From Candidatus Sericytochromatia bacterium (GTDB lineage: Bacteria > Cyanobacteriota > Sericytochromatia > S15B-MN24 > UBA4093): a DNA stretch of 39,628 bases. Under the pieces are notes generated by a model, which was not told the origin of the DNA, searched no databases, and worked only from the letters and a program-made list of their open reading frames with translations. Both the position numbers and the translations under genes were made by a program. This document shows positions 26,671 to 34,879 of this stretch, one piece after another. Location: the NCBI GenBank assembly GCA_036676985.1, contig JAKFBU010000055.1, positions 1 through 39,628 of the forward strand. Reading direction: 5' to 3'. The first letter of the stretch is position 1, and the number at the start of each line of letters is the position of its first letter.

Positions 26671-26754
26671 TCAAAGCGCCTCTTGAGACTGTTCCTTCCA
26701 ACCGCCGGATGGCGGTCGAAGGCTTCACATGCCTGGTCTCGAGAGGTGCTTTGA
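26671..26754. mobile_element. 84-nt palindromic element, copy A (MITE-like or structured RNA)
   Basis: 64/84 identical, ungapped, to 32979-33062; 19-bp terminal stem plus inner hairpin ACCGCC-GGAT-GGCGGT. Confidence 0.75.
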
Positions 26755-26833
26755 GCGCCTCTCGAGACTGTTTCCTCAAACCGCCGGATGGGGATCGGAG
26801 GCCTCGTCGGCCGGATCCAGAGCGGCCTCGTCG
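26750..26833. mobile_element. Degenerate tandem copy C of the 84-nt element, overlapping the DUF4127 3' end
   Basis: 26753-26805 matches copy A positions 4-56 at 44/53; similarity is weaker after that. Confidence 0.6.
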
Positions 26834-28305
26834 CCCGGCTGGCGCTCCACCACGCGGACGCCCACCTCGAAGAGGCGGTGCCACGGGAAGCGGGCCTCGA
26901 TGGTCGCGATCCGGATCCGGTGCACCAGCCGCGTCCACAGGGCCAGCATGCGCCCGGGCAGCTCCTGCTCCAGGGCGTCGATGGAGCGGCCCTTGGCCAA
27001 CTCCTCCTGCAGCTGCGGGCGCAGCTGGGACTGGTAGAGGATGTCGTCCGCGATCCGGTCGAGCATGTACTGGCGCTGGGCGGCCTCGTCGCGGGTCGCA
27101 GGATCGAGCCAGGCGCTCGCCTGGGCCACGACCGTGCCCAGGGTGTTGCCGGCCGTGTTCCACGCGGCGAACGCGCAGAGCCGCATGTGGTCCTTGAAGG
27201 CCCTAAAGAGCTCCGGGTCCCCGCCGTTGGCGTAGGCCACGTCCGCGAGCGCCGTGGGCATGAGCCCCTCGCTCAGGGTCCGCGCGAAGGGCCCGAGATC
27301 GCGGGGCGGGTGGTCCACCTTGTCGAGGTGGATCCGCAGGCACAGGTCGCCCTGGCCGGTGGAGGGCGTGTTCACCATGAGGAGCACGTCGGCCTCCTGC
27401 ATGCTGCCCACCACGCGGCCGCCCACGGCCTGGATCTGGCTTGCGACCGTGCGCTCGAGCGGCCGGTCCTCGTACATGGGCGTGATGGTCCCGCCGTAGG
27501 GCGTCGAGTAGCGCACGAAGAAGGCCGGGCTCTGGCGCTTCATCCGGTTCAGGTGTCGGCCGACGAGCACGCTCGCGACCTCGTCGGCGCCCGGGTAGAG
27601 GAGCACCCGGCTCGCGAGGTTGGCGGCGTTGACCTGCTCGACGAGCTTGCGCTGCTCCTTGACGTTGAGGCCGTAGCGGCTGGTGTCGTCCTGGGTCATG
27701 AGCAACAGGTCGAAGAGGTTGCGGCGCGTCCACTCCACCATCATCTGGTTGATCGCGAAGTTGCGCTCGCGCGTCTCCATGTAGTCCGAGAGGATCTCGA
27801 AGGGGATCTCCCCCTTGGCGTCGAGGGCCTTCTGGAGGTCGACGGCGTCCCCGTGCTGCTCGTACTTGTCCTGGTGGAACGAGTAGGTGTAGATGAGCTT
27901 GCCGTACTGGGCCCAGTACGGCTTCTCCTCCTCGACGGCGGCCTCCGCCGAGAGGCGCATGGTGACCGAGAAGCCGTAGATGGGCAGGCTCGGCCGGGCC
28001 TCCTTGATCTTCACCAGGCCCGCCAGGCGCTGCTGGATCGCCGCAAGGGGCGTGTCGCTCTGGCGGCTCGGGATGAGCCCGCCGTAGCCCAGGGTGTCCA
28101 CCGAGACGATGAGGGCCTCGGCCTCCGGGGCCCGCTCGGCGATCCACCGTAAAAGTCCCTCGCAGTCGGCGGGGCGCTCGAGGTTGCCCATCAGCTCCAC
28201 AGGGGGGCACTCGACCGGGACCGAGGCGATCGCCCCGATCTGGCGTGGCAGGTGGTACGTGACGGGACGATCGTCGAGGGGAACGAGCAACAGGCTTCCA
28301 GACAT
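26776..28305 (-). CDS. DUF4127 family protein
   Basis: LLVPLDDRP, SVDTLGYGGLIPSR, QDD, YPGADEV, ADVAYANGGD and AAWNTAGNTLG motifs. Confidence 0.9.
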   Translation of the reverse strand: MSGSLLLVPLDDRPVTYHLPRQIGAIASVPVECPPVELMGNLERPADCEGLLRWIAERAPEAEALIVSVDTLGYGGLIPSRQSDTPLAAIQQRLAGLVKIKEARPSLPIYGFSVTMRLSAEAAVEEEKPYWAQYGKLIYTYSFHQDKYEQHGDAVDLQKALDAKGEIPFEILSDYMETRERNFAINQMMVEWTRRNLFDLLLMTQDDTSRYGLNVKEQRKLVEQVNAANLASRVLLYPGADEVASVLVGRHLNRMKRQSPAFFVRYSTPYGGTITPMYEDRPLERTVASQIQAVGGRVVGSMQEADVLLMVNTPSTGQGDLCLRIHLDKVDHPPRDLGPFARTLSEGLMPTALADVAYANGGDPELFRAFKDHMRLCAFAAWNTAGNTLGTVVAQASAWLDPATRDEAAQRQYMLDRIADDILYQSQLRPQLQEELAKGRSIDALEQELPGRMLALWTRLVHRIRIATIEARFPWHRLFEVGVRVVERQPGDEAALDPADEASDPHPAV

Positions 28306-30915: not shown

Positions 30916-31808
30916 TGGGTACGCTCCGTGACGAACCGGGCGATCGCCCGGAGGGGGTCGGCGGCCGAGCCGAGCGGGACGAGGGCCTGCATGGCGATCG
31001 CCACCTGGCGATCGGCCTCGGCCCGCGCGGCCGCCATGCCGTAGAGGGCGGGGTAGGTCGCCTTGGAGACGGCCACGTCCTTGCCGGGGTTCTTGCCCAG
31101 GGCCTCGGCCGTGCCCGTCAGGTCCAAGAGGTCGTCGACGATCTGGAAGGCGAGGCCGAGGGCCTCGGCGTAGCGGGTCAGGGCGTCCATGGTGGCGGCG
31201 TCGGCCTCGGCCGCATGCGCCCCGAGGCGCGCGGCCACCCGCAGGAGCTGGCCCGTCTTGTGGCGGTGGATGAACTCGAGGGTGGCAGCGTCGATGGGCT
31301 TGCCCTCGCTCCGGATGTCCACCACCTGGCCCGCGACCATGCCGAGCGTCGCCTTCGCCAGATCGGCCAGGGCGAGCACCGTCCGCTCGTGGGAGGCATG
31401 CTTGGGCATGGCCTCGGCGAGCACCTCGAAGGCATAGGCCAAGAGGCCGTCTCCCGCCAAGAGGGCGAGGGCCTCGCCATAGACGACGTGGTTGGTCGGG
31501 CGGCCCCGGCGCAGGGTGTCGTCGTCCATGCAGGGCAGGTCGTCGTGGATCAGGCTCTGGGTGTGGATCAGCTCCAGGGCGCAGGCGGCGCCGACGGCCG
31601 CCTCGAGCGTGCCGCCCGCCGCCTCGCAGCTCGCGATGGTGAGGATCGGGCGCAGCCGCTTGCCGCCCGCGAGCACGCTGTAGGCCATGGACTCCCAGAG
31701 GGCGGCGGGCTCGCGCGTGGCGACGAGCTCCTCGAGCGTACGCTGGACGCGGGCGTTGCGCGCCTCCCAGTAGGCGTCGAGGGAAAAGGGTTTGAGGGCC
31801 GGGTCCAC
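30912..31808 (-). CDS. ispA: Polyprenyl (farnesyl/geranylgeranyl) diphosphate synthase
   Basis: GGKRLRP, SLIHDDLPCMDDDTLRRG (FARM), GQVVD, HKTG and FQIVDDLLD (SARM). Confidence 0.95.
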   Translation of the reverse strand: MDPALKPFSLDAYWEARNARVQRTLEELVATREPAALWESMAYSVLAGGKRLRPILTIASCEAAGGTLEAAVGAACALELIHTQSLIHDDLPCMDDDTLRRGRPTNHVVYGEALALLAGDGLLAYAFEVLAEAMPKHASHERTVLALADLAKATLGMVAGQVVDIRSEGKPIDAATLEFIHRHKTGQLLRVAARLGAHAAEADAATMDALTRYAEALGLAFQIVDDLLDLTGTAEALGKNPGKDVAVSKATYPALYGMAAARAEADRQVAIAMQALVPLGSAADPLRAIARFVTERTH

Positions 31809-31849
31809 CGTGGTTCGTCCTTTGCTTGCGGCGCGGGCAGGGCGGCCTC

Positions 31850-31900
31850 ATTATACCCCACGCCCCGGCGTCTCGGGGGCGGACGGCGGCATGGTAGAAT
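31850..31900. promoter_or_regulatory. Divergent -10 elements for ispA (minus) and the beta-barrel gene (plus)
   Basis: TATAAT on minus at 31850-31855; extended TGGTAGAAT on plus at 31892-31900. Confidence 0.5.
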
Positions 31901-31959
31901 CCCTTAACTCTTGGTTGCTAAGGGTTGTCGCTTCCCCCGTTCGATTAGAGGAAACAGCC

Positions 31960-32907
31960 GTGAAACAGCACCACCTCCTGTCCGCGAGCCTGGTGGCCCT
32001 GAGCGTCGTCATCGCCGGCCCGGCACTCGCCCAGATGAAGACCTCGAACCCCAAGCCCGCCGCCACGCCCACCCCCGCGCCCGGCACGGCCGCGGCCACG
32101 CCCAGCGTGACGCCCGCCCCCATGCGCACCACCGACCGGGTGGTCGAGCAGGAAGAGCGCGCGCCCATCGGCCTCAAGGTCTTCGGCGCCTACGACTTCA
32201 TGGGCAGCGTTTCCAACGGCGGCTTCGTGCCAGCGACCACCCAGGCCCCCGGCGTCACCGCCCCGGCCCTCGCCCAGGCCTCGCCCTCGGTGGGTGCTTC
32301 GGGCTACGCCTTCGGCGCCGAGTACGAGCTGCCGGTCATCGCCGTTGGCGCCAAGTACCAGGCCTTCGGCTTCGGCTCGCCCATCACGGCCGCCATCAAC
32401 AACCCGCCCACGGGCGTCACCCAGACCACCGCACCCAACTTCGACGTCTTCCTGCCCCAGAACTACTGGGAGCTCTACGGCAAGCTCGGTCCCCTCAAGG
32501 TCGGCTACCGCAACGAGAACTATGCCGGGACGGGCTTCGGCGGCAGCTACGGCAACCTGATGGGCGGCCTCCAGTTCGGCTTCGGCATCGACCCCATCAG
32601 CCTCAACTTCGGCGCCATGGGCGGCTACAACCTGTCCAAGCCCTCGACCCTGCCCGCCAACGTCACGCACATGCCCGTCGAGGGCGACGTGAACCTCGCG
32701 GTGGACTTCGGCCTCCTCAAGGCCAAGGTCGGCTACAAGGCCCTGGCCGTCGCCAACGCGGACGCGGCCACGCTCATGACCGCCCTCACCAACCCGGCGT
32801 CGTTGGCGGCACCCGGCGGCGCCACCCAGGCGCAGCTCGACGCCCTCTACGCGACCCGCTTCGGCCTCTACACCGGGCCGTACCTCGGCCTCGCGGTCGG
32901 CTTCTAG
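31960..32907 (+). CDS. Putative outer-membrane beta-barrel protein
   Basis: GTG after GAGG; signal peptide ALA-Q, Pro/Thr/Ala linker, alternating beta-strands, C-terminal GPYLGLAVGF beta-signal. Confidence 0.75.
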   Translation: MKQHHLLSASLVALSVVIAGPALAQMKTSNPKPAATPTPAPGTAAATPSVTPAPMRTTDRVVEQEERAPIGLKVFGAYDFMGSVSNGGFVPATTQAPGVTAPALAQASPSVGASGYAFGAEYELPVIAVGAKYQAFGFGSPITAAINNPPTGVTQTTAPNFDVFLPQNYWELYGKLGPLKVGYRNENYAGTGFGGSYGNLMGGLQFGFGIDPISLNFGAMGGYNLSKPSTLPANVTHMPVEGDVNLAVDFGLLKAKVGYKALAVANADAATLMTALTNPASLAAPGGATQAQLDALYATRFGLYTGPYLGLAVGF

Positions 32908-32918
32908 GCCCATTCCCG

Positions 32919-32954
32919 ACCGGGGGCTCCCCTGGGGGGCCCCCGGTTTCTTTC
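32919..32954 (+). terminator. Intrinsic terminator after the beta-barrel gene
   Basis: ACCGGGGGCTCCCC-TG-GGGGGCCCCCGGT stem then TTTCTTTC. Confidence 0.75.
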
Positions 32955-32974
32955 CTAACCATTAGGAGGCAACC

Positions 32975-34879
32975 ATGCTCAGAGCGCCTGACAAAACTGT
33001 TCCTTCGAGCCGCCGGAAGGCGGCCCATGACAACACATGCCTGGTTTTGTCAGGTGCTCTGATGCGCCTTGCGACCTGCGGCCTCGTCGCCATGACGGTC
33101 CTCGTCGCCGCGCCGTCCGCGCTGGCCTTCACGCCGGTCAGCGAGCTCAAGGACGTCAGCCCCGATCACTGGGCCTACAACGCCATCAAGGCCCTGGTCG
33201 AGAAGTACCAGGTCATGGAGGGGTTCCCGGACAACACCTTCCGCGGCGCGCGCACCATCTCCCGCTACGAGGCCGCCGCGGCCCTCGCCAAGGTCATGGC
33301 CCGGGTCGAGGAGATGGTGGCCGCCGCGACCGGCGAGACGCCGCAGCCGACCCGCATCCAGCCGAGCGTCAGCCCCGACGACCTGCGCACCATCGCACGC
33401 CTCCAGCAGGAGTTCAAGGACGAGCTGACGGGCCTCAAGGCCCGGGTCGACACCCAGGATGCCCGCCTCTCGGCCCTCGAGAAGCGCATCCGGCTCGGCG
33501 GCTCCCTGGACGCCCTCCTGCGCACCTACACGGCCCAGCCCGTCAACCAGGCCAACGAGCGCGAGGACCTGCGCATCGCGACCAACCTCACGCTCGACGC
33601 CAACGTGAGCCCCGAGCTGAGCTACCGCGGACAGCTCTCCGTCTTCAACAGCGGCGCGCACCGCTTCGCGAACGGGCACCTGTCGACCGAGGGCGGTCGA
33701 CCCGAGTTCGATGCCCCGGGCGACGTCGGCACGCCCCTCTACGTGCGGCGCTCCTACTTCTCGTGGACGCCCTCGGGCCTCGGCGTGCACGTGGGCATGA
33801 TGACCTTCTCGGACACCCTGCGCATCGGCTCGACCCTGCGCAACGAGTTCCGCACCGGCCCCGTCTGGCCCCATGCCGAGGGGGGCTACGGCTTCGTGGG
33901 CACCCCGCCGCTGCAGCCGCCCGCCCAGCCCAGCACCACCGAGACGGGCAACCTCGTGCTCGCTCCGGCCTCGCCGACCGCCCGCAGCCTGCCCACCATG
34001 CCGGGCCGGGTCCGCTGGAACCCGGGCGTCAACGTCGCCGAGGACCTCCTGGACCCCAACTCGGTCTGGGCCGTCAACACGGGCGCGGCTCCGAGTGCCG
34101 TGGTCAACGGCTTTTTGGGACCCGTGGAGCTCGGCGTCGGCCTCAACTACGGCACGCCGGGCGCTTCGAGCGAGCTGGCCCTCACCGACCAGCCGCGCAC
34201 CTTCCCCTTGATCAGCGAGTTCTACCGGGGCTACGCCCTCGGCAAGGTCGGCCTGGACCTGGGCATCGTGCGCTGGGGCGCCTACCTGCGCTCCGACTCC
34301 TCGGCCCTGCGCAGCGGGACGGGCCTCCTGAGCTCCGGGCGGGGCTACGGCACCACCCTGGACGTCGGTTCGGACGCCCTGGGCCTGAGCCTCGGCCATG
34401 CCGAGTTCATGCGCCGCGACTACGACCCCAACTACTACGCCGAGACCTCCGGCTTCGTGGTGAGCAACAGCCTGTTCGGCACGGGCATCGGGATCGGCAT
34501 CGGCGCCAAGGTCGGCAACTCGCCGGGGGCGGACTTCGCGGGCCTCATCCCGGTCTTGGCCTACGACTGGACGTCCACCGGCGCCTACGTGAAGCTGCCG
34601 GGCTTCTCGGTCATCCCCTCCTTGACGCTGGCCGCGCAGACCTCCGGGCGAGACTTGCTGACGGCGGACTACGGCTCGGGCCTCTCGGTGATCGCCGAGC
34701 TGCAGATCTCGCCGAGCCTGCCGTCGTTGCTCATCGAGTACGACATGGGCCGCTTCTACGGCAGCCCGAGCACGCCCGCGCCGAGCGGCCAGACGCCCGC
34801 CACGGCCAACCAGCTCATCGGCGGGGCCAACTACCCCACCCACGAGCAGCTCGTCATCGGGACGACCGTTCAGTTCTAG
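32975..34879 (+). CDS. SLH-domain outer-membrane porin (cyanobacterial SomA / SlpA-like architecture)
   Basis: AGGAGG SD; LKDVSPDHWAYNAIKALVEKY..GFPDNTFRG.RTISRYEAAA SLH domain; coiled coil LQQEFKDEL; beta-rich C-terminus ending in F. Confidence 0.88.
   Translation: MLRAPDKTVPSSRRKAAHDNTCLVLSGALMRLATCGLVAMTVLVAAPSALAFTPVSELKDVSPDHWAYNAIKALVEKYQVMEGFPDNTFRGARTISRYEAAAALAKVMARVEEMVAAATGETPQPTRIQPSVSPDDLRTIARLQQEFKDELTGLKARVDTQDARLSALEKRIRLGGSLDALLRTYTAQPVNQANEREDLRIATNLTLDANVSPELSYRGQLSVFNSGAHRFANGHLSTEGGRPEFDAPGDVGTPLYVRRSYFSWTPSGLGVHVGMMTFSDTLRIGSTLRNEFRTGPVWPHAEGGYGFVGTPPLQPPAQPSTTETGNLVLAPASPTARSLPTMPGRVRWNPGVNVAEDLLDPNSVWAVNTGAAPSAVVNGFLGPVELGVGLNYGTPGASSELALTDQPRTFPLISEFYRGYALGKVGLDLGIVRWGAYLRSDSSALRSGTGLLSSGRGYGTTLDVGSDALGLSLGHAEFMRRDYDPNYYAETSGFVVSNSLFGTGIGIGIGAKVGNSPGADFAGLIPVLAYDWTSTGAYVKLPGFSVIPSLTLAAQTSGRDLLTADYGSGLSVIAELQISPSLPSLLIEYDMGRFYGSPSTPAPSGQTPATANQLIGGANYPTHEQLVIGTTVQF
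32979..33062. mobile_element. 84-nt palindromic element, copy B, in frame within the porin signal peptide
   Basis: TCAGAGCGCCTGACAAAAC...GTTTTGTCAGGTGCTCTGA; same length and conserved loops as copy A. Confidence 0.75.

Follow-up and report, generated by a model that had tools for sequence, protein, structure and literature searches.

A palindromic repeat of a lineage-specific family inserted in frame into the signal peptide of an SLH-domain porin gene in a Candidatus Sericytochromatia bacterium

The window analyzed here is a DNA stretch of 39,628 nt (contig JAKFBU010000055.1, assembly GCA_036676985.1) from a Candidatus Sericytochromatia bacterium, a soil relative of cyanobacteria, whose genome is designated G000 below. 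The plus strand of the window carries, at 32975..34879, an ORF of 634 aa encoding an SLH-domain porin; this length includes a palindromic insert near the 5' end of the gene, which is the subject of the present analysis. Residues 59-101 of the protein match the Pfam SLH domain (E = 1.3e-9). The protein has the order expected of such porins, namely, an N-terminal signal peptide, then the SLH domain, and a C-terminal part that ends in F (...TTVQF), with a putative barrel. Porin orthologues were found in all 41 related genomes searched.

A Shine-Dalgarno (SD) sequence, AGGAGG, is located at 32964..32969 (plus strand), 5 nt 5' of the ATG codon at 32975..32977 (ATG1). A second in-frame ATG (ATG2) opens the ancestral signal peptide coding sequence at 33062..33127 (plus strand), which was recognized by its translation, MRLATCGLVAMTVLVAAPSALA, and by the N-termini of orthologues. 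The frame that begins at ATG1 has no stops and reads MLRAPDKTVPSSRRKAAHDNTCLVLSGAL-MRLATCGLVAMTVLVAAPSALA-FTPVSE. The signal peptide is likely cleaved after ALA, a position read by eye rather than with a prediction tool.

According to the comparison with empty alleles and to the match of a covariance model, the insertion occupies 32981..33061 (plus strand) and consists of an 80-nt palindromic core AGAGC...GCTCT (32981-33060) and G33061; the placement 32982-33062 is equally possible. The insert sits between codons 2 and 3 of the porin gene, adds exactly 81 nt, and keeps the frame. An earlier reading of the sequence, the first-pass annotation, had proposed that AGGAGG serves ATG 32975 and that a palindromic element begins 4 nt later, in frame within the signal peptide of the SLH-porin; both the coordinates and the stop-free frame agree with this proposal, as do the empty alleles. 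The same annotation divided the 81 nt into a 78-nt core and one 3-nt flank. The total is correct, whereas the division is one possible description, and an 80-nt core plus one base fits equally well.

The covariance model of the repeat family matches positions 32979-33065 at 99.6 bits. The outer stem is formed by a 5' arm at 32979..32997 and a 3' arm at 33044..33062 (both given on the plus strand), the last base of the latter being the A of ATG2. The arms are 19 nt long and 95% complementary; they were delimited by the inverted repeat together with stem covariation across 39 copies (5' arm) and with the fold (3' arm). The inner hairpin, GCCGCC-GGAA-GGCGGC, lies at 33009..33024 (plus strand) and was derived from the fold; across the copies, 97.8% of the cells of this helix are paired. 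The loop variant GGTA, which is commoner in the family, would put an in-frame TAG into the register of the porin. The stretch of the porin copy folds at -56.2 kcal/mol (z = -6.1), and none of 200 shuffled sequences was as stable. The arm motif occurs twice in the window, versus 0.06 occurrences expected.

The 5' ends of six orthologues were then compared with that of the porin gene. In the orthologue of G001, a genome of the same genus (84% identity), the 5' end reads AGGAGGAAACC ATG TTC ATG CGC CTT GCG (MFMRLATLGLV...). The corresponding sequences are ATG CGC ATG CGC CTT in G007 and G004, ATG GTC ATG AAG in G008, ATG GTC TTG AAG in G005, and ATG GVC AAA CAG, taken as ATG GTC AAA CAG, in G002. 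None of these six 5' ends contains the element or the homologous 27-aa segment that, according to the first-pass annotation, orthologues without the hairpin might still carry.

In addition, contigs from four metagenome runs (X5, X7, X8, and X9, belonging to four studies) were aligned to positions 32600-33600 of the window. Contigs of X5, X8, and X9 (three studies) link 32981 to 33083 via 17 letters; the joined sequence is ATG CTC ATG CGC CTT GCG AGC GCA followed by CTC GTC..., that is, an empty site together with an unrelated one-codon difference. Relative to the window, the X5 contig has 3 differences over 382 positions of one flank and none over 98 positions of the other. Another contig of X9 links 32981 to 33064 via a single A (ATG CTC AAG CGC...), which is an exact 81-nt difference, and codon 3 of this strain encodes Lys instead of Met. 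The run X7 yielded a 200-nt contig (32940-33139) with no differences from the window, representing the filled form, which is present in at least two studies. With empty alleles in three studies and the filled form in a fourth, the porin gene shows a recent insertion for which very closely related strains are polymorphic. The first-pass annotation had predicted that relatives would lack precisely these 81 nt, and this was indeed seen in the G001 orthologue and in the contigs of close strains. As follows from the conspecific empty allele (ATG CTC ATG CGC), the direct target duplication at the porin does not exceed 1 nt (A); the left neighboring base of the insert is derived from the target, and the right base is new.

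The SD sequence is kept in the six closest orthologues at 5-6 nt from the equivalent of ATG 32975, and ATG 32975 itself is present in all six. As for the place of ATG 33062, its codon varies: ATG in G001, G007, G004, and G008, TTG in G005, and AAA in G002, with AAG in the related strain from the metagenome contig. By this comparison, the conserved start of the porin is ATG 32975 and not ATG 33062. Being invariant in the six orthologues, unlike the third codon, ATG 32975 is taken as the ancestral start codon; the element landed inside the coding sequence and not in a leader.

The gene located upstream of the porin (31792-32907) encodes an outer-membrane protein that has no Pfam match and ends in GF. 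Between the two genes, and outside the element, a GC-rich terminator-like hairpin followed by TTTCTTTCC is located at 32919..32947 (plus strand). This hairpin with its T-rich tail stands 16 nt before the porin SD sequence and is kept in relatives, the same arrangement being found upstream of porin orthologues. Because there is no space for a promoter behind the hairpin, the porin is probably transcribed via read-through from the gene of the outer-membrane protein.

The inserted element belongs to a repeat family. A search of G000 with an nhmmer profile built from the first 15 copies (E < 1e-5) revealed 39 copies, and the covariance model revealed 41. In related genomes, the covariance model found 64 copies in G004, 46 in G007, 25 in G001, 8 in G005, and 5 in G008, all of which belong to one taxonomic family; no copies were found in the other 35 relatives (four from the same family and 31 from other families of the order and class). 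An exact-pattern scan of the whole collection, with one genome per species, detected 30 loci, 23 of which match the covariance model; six of these 23 are in metagenome-assembled genomes titled "Candidatus Sericytochromatia bacterium", and 17 are titled "Stenomitos sp." Seven loci (Muribaculaceae, Acidimicrobiaceae, Paracoccus, Massilia, Paenibacillus, Verrucomicrobia, and Rufibacter) fail the covariance model and were rejected as chance matches. In Rfam, the element had no match at E up to 10 in the region 32800-33300, and the whole window had no match at the gathering score. The stretch represents one member of a lineage-specific repeat family whose small, mobile palindromes resemble miniature inverted-repeat transposable elements (MITEs) in behavior and Rickettsia palindromic elements (RPEs) in coding compatibility.

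A full copy of the family (copy A) is present in the window at 26671..26757 (plus strand), where it is intergenic between two minus-strand genes; it was detected by nhmmer and by the covariance model (91 bits), and its site is also occupied in G001 (locus L119). Copy A had been described as open in the same register as the porin copy, and its translation, KAPLETVPSNRRMAVEGFTCLVSRGAL, confirms this. A truncated second copy, comprising the left arm and the inner part, lies directly behind copy A at 26753..26825 (plus strand; nhmmer match 26750-26801, weak model match 26758-26825, E = 0.08). It shares with copy A the unusual arm variant CTCTCGAGAC and extends into a minus-strand gene (26776-28251) at the 3' end of that gene. 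Compound arrangements were also observed in the sister genus (G004 and G007), where the copies at loci L087, L143, and L182 are immediately followed by a second conserved unit, GGTGGGGGGAT.C.ATCAAGTTCCT, and are preceded by C-rich/G-rich hairpins, which suggests a composite repeat.

The alignment of the 39 G000 copies comprises 87 columns. Common to them are a 17-19 bp outer stem, the inner hairpin GCCGCC-GNNA-GGCGGC, and two motifs, CTGTTCC and CATGCCTGG, that are unpaired and almost without variation. A larger set of 145 copies with flanks was used for the analysis of placement; it consists of the 39 copies of G000 and 106 copies in 105 loci of five relatives (31 of 46 in G007 and about 40 of 64 in G004). 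The core AGAGC...GCTCT is exactly 80 nt long in 85 of the 145 copies. In the 39-copy alignment, 88.9% of the cells are paired; the figure is 82.0% for shuffles and drops to 34-45% if the partners are shifted against each other. Changes on both sides were found in 16 pairs, and none of 500 shuffles reached any of the five covariation measures. Since G-U far exceeds A-C and one G-U pair is kept in 33 of the 39 copies, the structure of the element has a preferred strand; the score of the covariance model is about 100 bits for this strand, compared with about 25 bits for the opposite one.

The excess of pairing, the two-sided changes, the kept G-U pair, the nearly invariant loops, and the strand asymmetry would all suit a family that acts mainly as a structured RNA, or as a single-strand DNA signal of independent function, the coding copies being accidental. 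Such an explanation is nevertheless unlikely. Copies occur in both orientations relative to neighboring genes (120 sense versus 80 antisense placements by a simple rule), and the presence/absence polymorphism and species-specific sites indicate mobility. No Rfam family was matched, and the concerted change of both arms has another possible source, since template switching in quasi-palindromes can change both arms in concert.

Most of the 145 copies are intergenic and lie near gene ends in both orientations. For about 39 of them, the gene before the element has a stop codon that overlaps with, or is provided by, the terminal T-N-A (TAG, TAA, or TGA), and the frequency of such overlaps in a genome with 67% G+C suggests a preference for TA-containing sites. 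Turnover was assessed using the 23 G001 copies, of which 20 have both flanks on one G000 contig. In G000, 17 of these 20 sites are empty, one is shared (the copy A site), and two contain other sequence; turnover has therefore been almost complete since the split of the G000 and G001 species. The two latter sites (C56:39641-39810 and C1:55677-55782 of G000) hold about 100-115 nt that the family profile does not recognize and that may represent a different repeat on the same landing site.

The target sites were compared in the 17 filled/empty pairs (G001 versus G000), which were read by eye on diverged intergenic flanks. The net insert sizes in the four clearest pairs were 81, 82, 80, and 75 nt. 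A TA duplication fits some G001 copies (L091 and L118) and not others, and none of the duplication models considered (TA, TNA, or 1 nt) accounts for every filled/empty pair. The base adjoining the core is complementary, rather than repeated, across the two sides in 22 of 39 copies. At the G000 site C76, the arms read ATGC...GCAT beside a target ATG. Self-correcting arms with growth into the flanking sequence would be compatible with template switching in quasi-palindromes, which is mentioned here as a lead only.

In general, the family has features of MITEs, namely, inverted-repeat arms of 17-19 bp, small size, 5-64 copies per genome, and filled/empty alleles. A search for a parent insertion sequence (IS) revealed no solitary left or right ends in G000, a 79-contig draft in which an IS may be collapsed or unassembled. 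Mobilization of the type known for repetitive extragenic palindromes (REPs) and their RAYT transposases was rejected, as the Y1 transposase gene (Y1_Tnp, PF01797) had no match in the copy-richest genomes G000, G004, and G007; PF01797 is present in G002, which is without the repeat.

The count of in-frame copies throughout the genomes, which the first-pass annotation had called for, was performed by screening the 145 copies of the six genomes for frames that cross the element without a stop, continue into coding sequence, and are preceded by an SD sequence and a start codon. Eight copies were found, and all of them are located in N-terminal signal peptides (the porin, a TolC-like protein, a binding protein, and five lipoproteins). 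In each signal peptide, the copy follows the charged start and precedes the hydrophobic core; none was found in gene bodies. Two copies are in sense and six in antisense orientation, with one frame used per orientation. The sense copies are those of the porin in the window (ML[RAPDK...SGAL]MRLATC...) and of the TolC-like protein of G008 (L084). The antisense copies belong to the binding protein of G000 (C38, MKKFVRALF[ALRAPNKTRHGSPVAAYRRLGGTVLLGAL]TLVATALPAQA) and to lipoproteins of G000 (C27, MARRLGLL[...]ISLYALTGC; C73, MTPRA[...]TILLSLTLCLAAC), G001 (L113), G007 (L137), and G004 (L175).

For seven of the eight copies, a sister genome has an empty site, and in six of these seven the same N-terminal residues precede the site. 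The difference between the filled and empty forms is 27 aa in five cases (the porin, the binding protein, L113, L175, and L084) and 26 aa in C73. The G004 orthologue of L137 is without the element, and its leader is not alignable, hence no insert length is given; for the lipoprotein of C27 (LIPO1), the N-termini of orthologues are too diverged to show an empty site. These comparisons establish that insertion into signal peptides has recurred within the family.

The gene of L137 encodes a subtilisin-like lipoprotein, and its orthologues show an additional peculiarity. While G007 contains the 81-nt element, G000 (L198, C40) and G001 (L197) contain a different in-frame insert with C and G runs forming hairpins, located between the conserved start region and the lipobox (MRQFVGLSVSHLTPPPPPASKGG...RSRGGRGGKK-LALLMLVGLLAGC); the G004 orthologue has a plain 19-aa leader. 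The leader of this lipoprotein seems to collect different repeats in different species.

The frames used by the eight copies are the ones that most frequently lack stops across the family (88 of 145 copies in sense and 95 of 145 in antisense). They encode a segment of 26-27 aa that is basic and then hydrophobic; in the open peptides, net charge averages +3.1 (sense) or +3.9 (antisense), and the last residues are (C)LVLLGA or TVLLGA. The element itself ends with GGC GCT CTN, i.e., Gly-Ala-Leu, which resembles the Ala/Leu codon runs of leaders. It is conceivable from these properties, if improbable, that the family is pre-adapted to signal peptides and inserts there preferentially, and that the porin hairpin decides whether a long or a short signal peptide is made, its alleles segregating as expression variants. 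If this were true, a hairpin of about -50 kcal/mol between two in-frame starts would set the level of a major envelope tether, and the filled and empty alleles would be natural expression variants in soil and groundwater populations.

The data are better explained by another scheme, which we consider probable: an RPE-like selfish repeat that is tolerated in a cleaved leader, neutral to mildly harmful, and not a built-in regulator. Tolerance rather than function best explains the pattern because intragenic insertions survive only in the disposable leader. The mobile repeat landed between codons 2 and 3, leaving the ancestral SD sequence and ATG 32975 in place. In the landing phase, it encodes a basic and then hydrophobic stretch, RAPDKTVPSSRRKAAHDNT-CLVLSGAL, which would lengthen the positively charged n-region and run into the hydrophobic core of the signal peptide. 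We infer that ribosomes starting at ATG 32975 would translate through the element, adding 27 residues, and that signal peptidase would remove the whole 51-aa leader after ALA, so that the mature porin would be unchanged. Translation of the inserted segments is backed indirectly by the kept frames and by the ancestral starts located upstream. The in-frame ATG 33062 at the 3' foot of the hairpin could act as a back-up start. Translational bypass in the manner of T4 gene 60 was considered as well and rejected, as the sole CTC landing codon in the 3' arm (33057-33059) precedes TGA and the frame is open anyway.

Several observations weigh against this scheme. The screen saw only copies that are open through, and the in-frame state of the eight copies therefore partly reflects detection. 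A complementary screen for leaders in which the frame closes in the element and no start follows found no broken leaders among 42 closed frames; in 40 of these, a start follows the element within 45 nt, and in the other two the composition there is non-coding. In addition, none of the seven testable signal peptide insertions is common to sister species, which fits mild harm as well as a recent burst.

A further objection concerns initiation at ATG1. The hairpin of the porin copy starts at +5 from ATG1, inside the ribosome footprint, and the 30S subunit must hold the surroundings of the start codon single-stranded, a region into which +5 falls. The computed cost of opening positions -12..+13 at ATG1 is 26.2 kcal/mol in the filled form versus 13.2 kcal/mol in the empty one. 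Because of this higher cost, initiation at ATG1 may be strongly impaired, as far as such modeling indicates. For the SD sequence and ATG1 alone (-12..+3), the cost is equal in the two forms (7.5 kcal/mol filled and 8.0 kcal/mol empty).

The other point of this kind comes from a copy at C76:84011-84090 of G000 (L024), which lies between a periplasmic-looking gene and a membrane-protein gene (PYWAAISLGFFFSFAHCLGMCGG). Here, the repeat split, out of phase, an overlapping stop/start that reads TGATG in relatives (L233-L235), and the frame that starts at the former ATG now comprises 24 codons and stops within the element. Judging by its sequence, the membrane-protein gene must start either at a GTG/TTG in the element behind GGAGGA or at a TTG that replaces the old ATG; the repeat thus seems to provide the gene with both its ribosome-binding site and its start codon. 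Re-initiation downstream of an element is therefore possible in this lineage.

On these grounds, the element of the filled allele could be a 5' leader: the folded hairpin would bring the SD sequence near ATG 33062, which starts an ordinary 22-aa signal peptide, while ATG 32975 would be blocked. With the hairpin folded, only 9-10 unpaired nt remain between the SD sequence and ATG2, and the spacing to that ATG in the empty allele is 11 nt. The rise of about 13 kcal/mol in the cost of the ATG1 footprint and the survival of the C76 gene by a start within or behind the element point in the same direction, and phage T4 gene 38 offers an example of a hairpin that bridges an SD sequence and a start codon. 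On the other hand, ATG2 is not conserved as a start, being replaced by TTG, AAA, or AAG in some relatives; its A is paired in the stem, and opening the linear footprint at ATG2 costs 31.9 kcal/mol. Moreover, five of the seven other in-frame copies have no ATG or GTG between the element and the cleavage site, so that read-through is the simplest explanation there. The LIPO2 element ends in an in-frame ATG, and the L113 lipoprotein has a GTC-GGC-TGC lipobox, whose in-frame GTC is not a start codon. In sum, translation of the porin through the element from ATG1 appears somewhat better than an even chance, and a start at ATG2 is less likely; both starts may be used.

The porin copy is extreme in position among the eight (+5 from the start), its predicted effect on accessibility is large, and the filled and empty forms are polymorphic in nature. 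These features could also be expected if the hairpin had been recruited as a regulator of a major envelope gene, acting on translation rate or mRNA stability (e.g., as an RNase III site or a kinetic two-start switch), with the alleles under selection. This is unlikely, however, since the insertion is conserved no further than one species-level population, the same family is found at unrelated genes and mostly between genes, and the porin copy is otherwise like the rest, save for the rarer GGAA loop without an in-frame TAG. Nothing in this analysis indicates an adaptive tuning role. The large predicted initiation penalty could instead mean that the filled allele is a porin gene heading to loss, with expression crippled by the hairpin at the start codon and compensated by paralogues; six matches to the porin query were found in G000, i.e., other SLH-domain proteins exist. 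This appears very unlikely: the 634-aa frame is intact, the filled form recurs between studies, and the other G000 matches cover mostly the SLH part.

The tolerated selfish repeat remains the preferred interpretation. For the finding itself, the evidence is notably clear: an exact natural empty allele, eight independent leader insertions, and the readability of both orientations. Every intragenic copy seen (8 of 8) is in a cleaved signal peptide, in either orientation and always in the readable phase; because of this, signal peptides look like the one intragenic place where selfish hairpin DNA can settle. The case suggests that, in this soil relative of cyanobacteria, cleaved export signals are tolerant of selfish DNA. 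For annotation, this means that start and signal peptide calls of envelope proteins will be wrong if the repeat is taken as an untranslated leader or as a real domain. For studies of secretion, the inserts are natural tests of the limits of n-region length and charge. The porin, in which a very stable hairpin lies 4 nt past a conserved start and both alleles are natural, bears on how ribosomes handle a structured initiation footprint.

Several known groups of palindromic repeats can be compared with the present family. REPs and the bacterial interspersed mosaic elements (BIMEs) that they form are hairpin repeats moved by RAYT (Y1) transposases; they are largely extragenic, and their structure is kept more than their sequence. 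The present element differs from them in being longer and two-tier and in the lack of Y1_Tnp in G000, G004, and G007.

MITEs such as Correia/NEMIS, ERIC/RU-1, and RUP, as described in PMC2229807 (Table 1), are similar to the present family in size (<200 bp), terminal inverted repeats, and long stem-loop transcripts. According to the same source, TA termini in many copies, many copies per genome, and presence/absence differences between strains are further common features. The differences are that no parent IS with matching ends was found in G000, that the arms of the present family covary rather than staying fixed, and that the direct duplication at the porin does not exceed 1 nt.

RPEs, the nearest elements among those described (Ogata et al. 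2000 and Abergel et al. 2006, summarized in Delihas 2008, PMC2229807), occur in frame within 19 protein genes; of the products, that of gmk is translated and active. Like the present family, they are small dispersed palindromic repeats with an open frame, intergenic or fused in frame to genes; the inserts are described there as apparently neutral or slightly harmful, and the transposase as not known. The present repeat likewise is a dispersed palindrome in frame inside protein genes (8 of 145 copies), with a supported stem-loop. It differs from RPEs in lineage (relatives of cyanobacteria) and in size (80 nt versus 105-146 bp), and both orientations are used in the present family. In addition, all eight intragenic copies are in cleaved signal peptides, whereas the RPEs of that account lie in the bodies of conserved proteins (PMC2229807). 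The proposal that the porin element is an analogue of RPEs in another lineage thus holds in the sense that it works like them; membership in the RPE family does not follow, the likeness being one of description and not of consensus sequence.

Among the full-text literature matches listed, none was found to describe a palindromic repeat that had entered existing signal peptides in frame repeatedly; one of the matches, PMC2653234, merely lists RPE in a table. Also close is the YPAL/RU-2 repeat of Yersinia pestis, which contributes to the predicted signal peptide of YPO1552 (Delihas 2007, PMC2759123). It is a single 168-bp case that gives the N-terminus of a small, possibly new, exported protein, whereas the present family was inserted eight times inside the existing signal peptides of conserved genes, with empty sites in sister genomes. 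The repeat found in the porin gene is a new lineage-specific member of the coding-compatible palindromic repeats, and for its location in a signal peptide there is one printed precedent, the Yersinia case.

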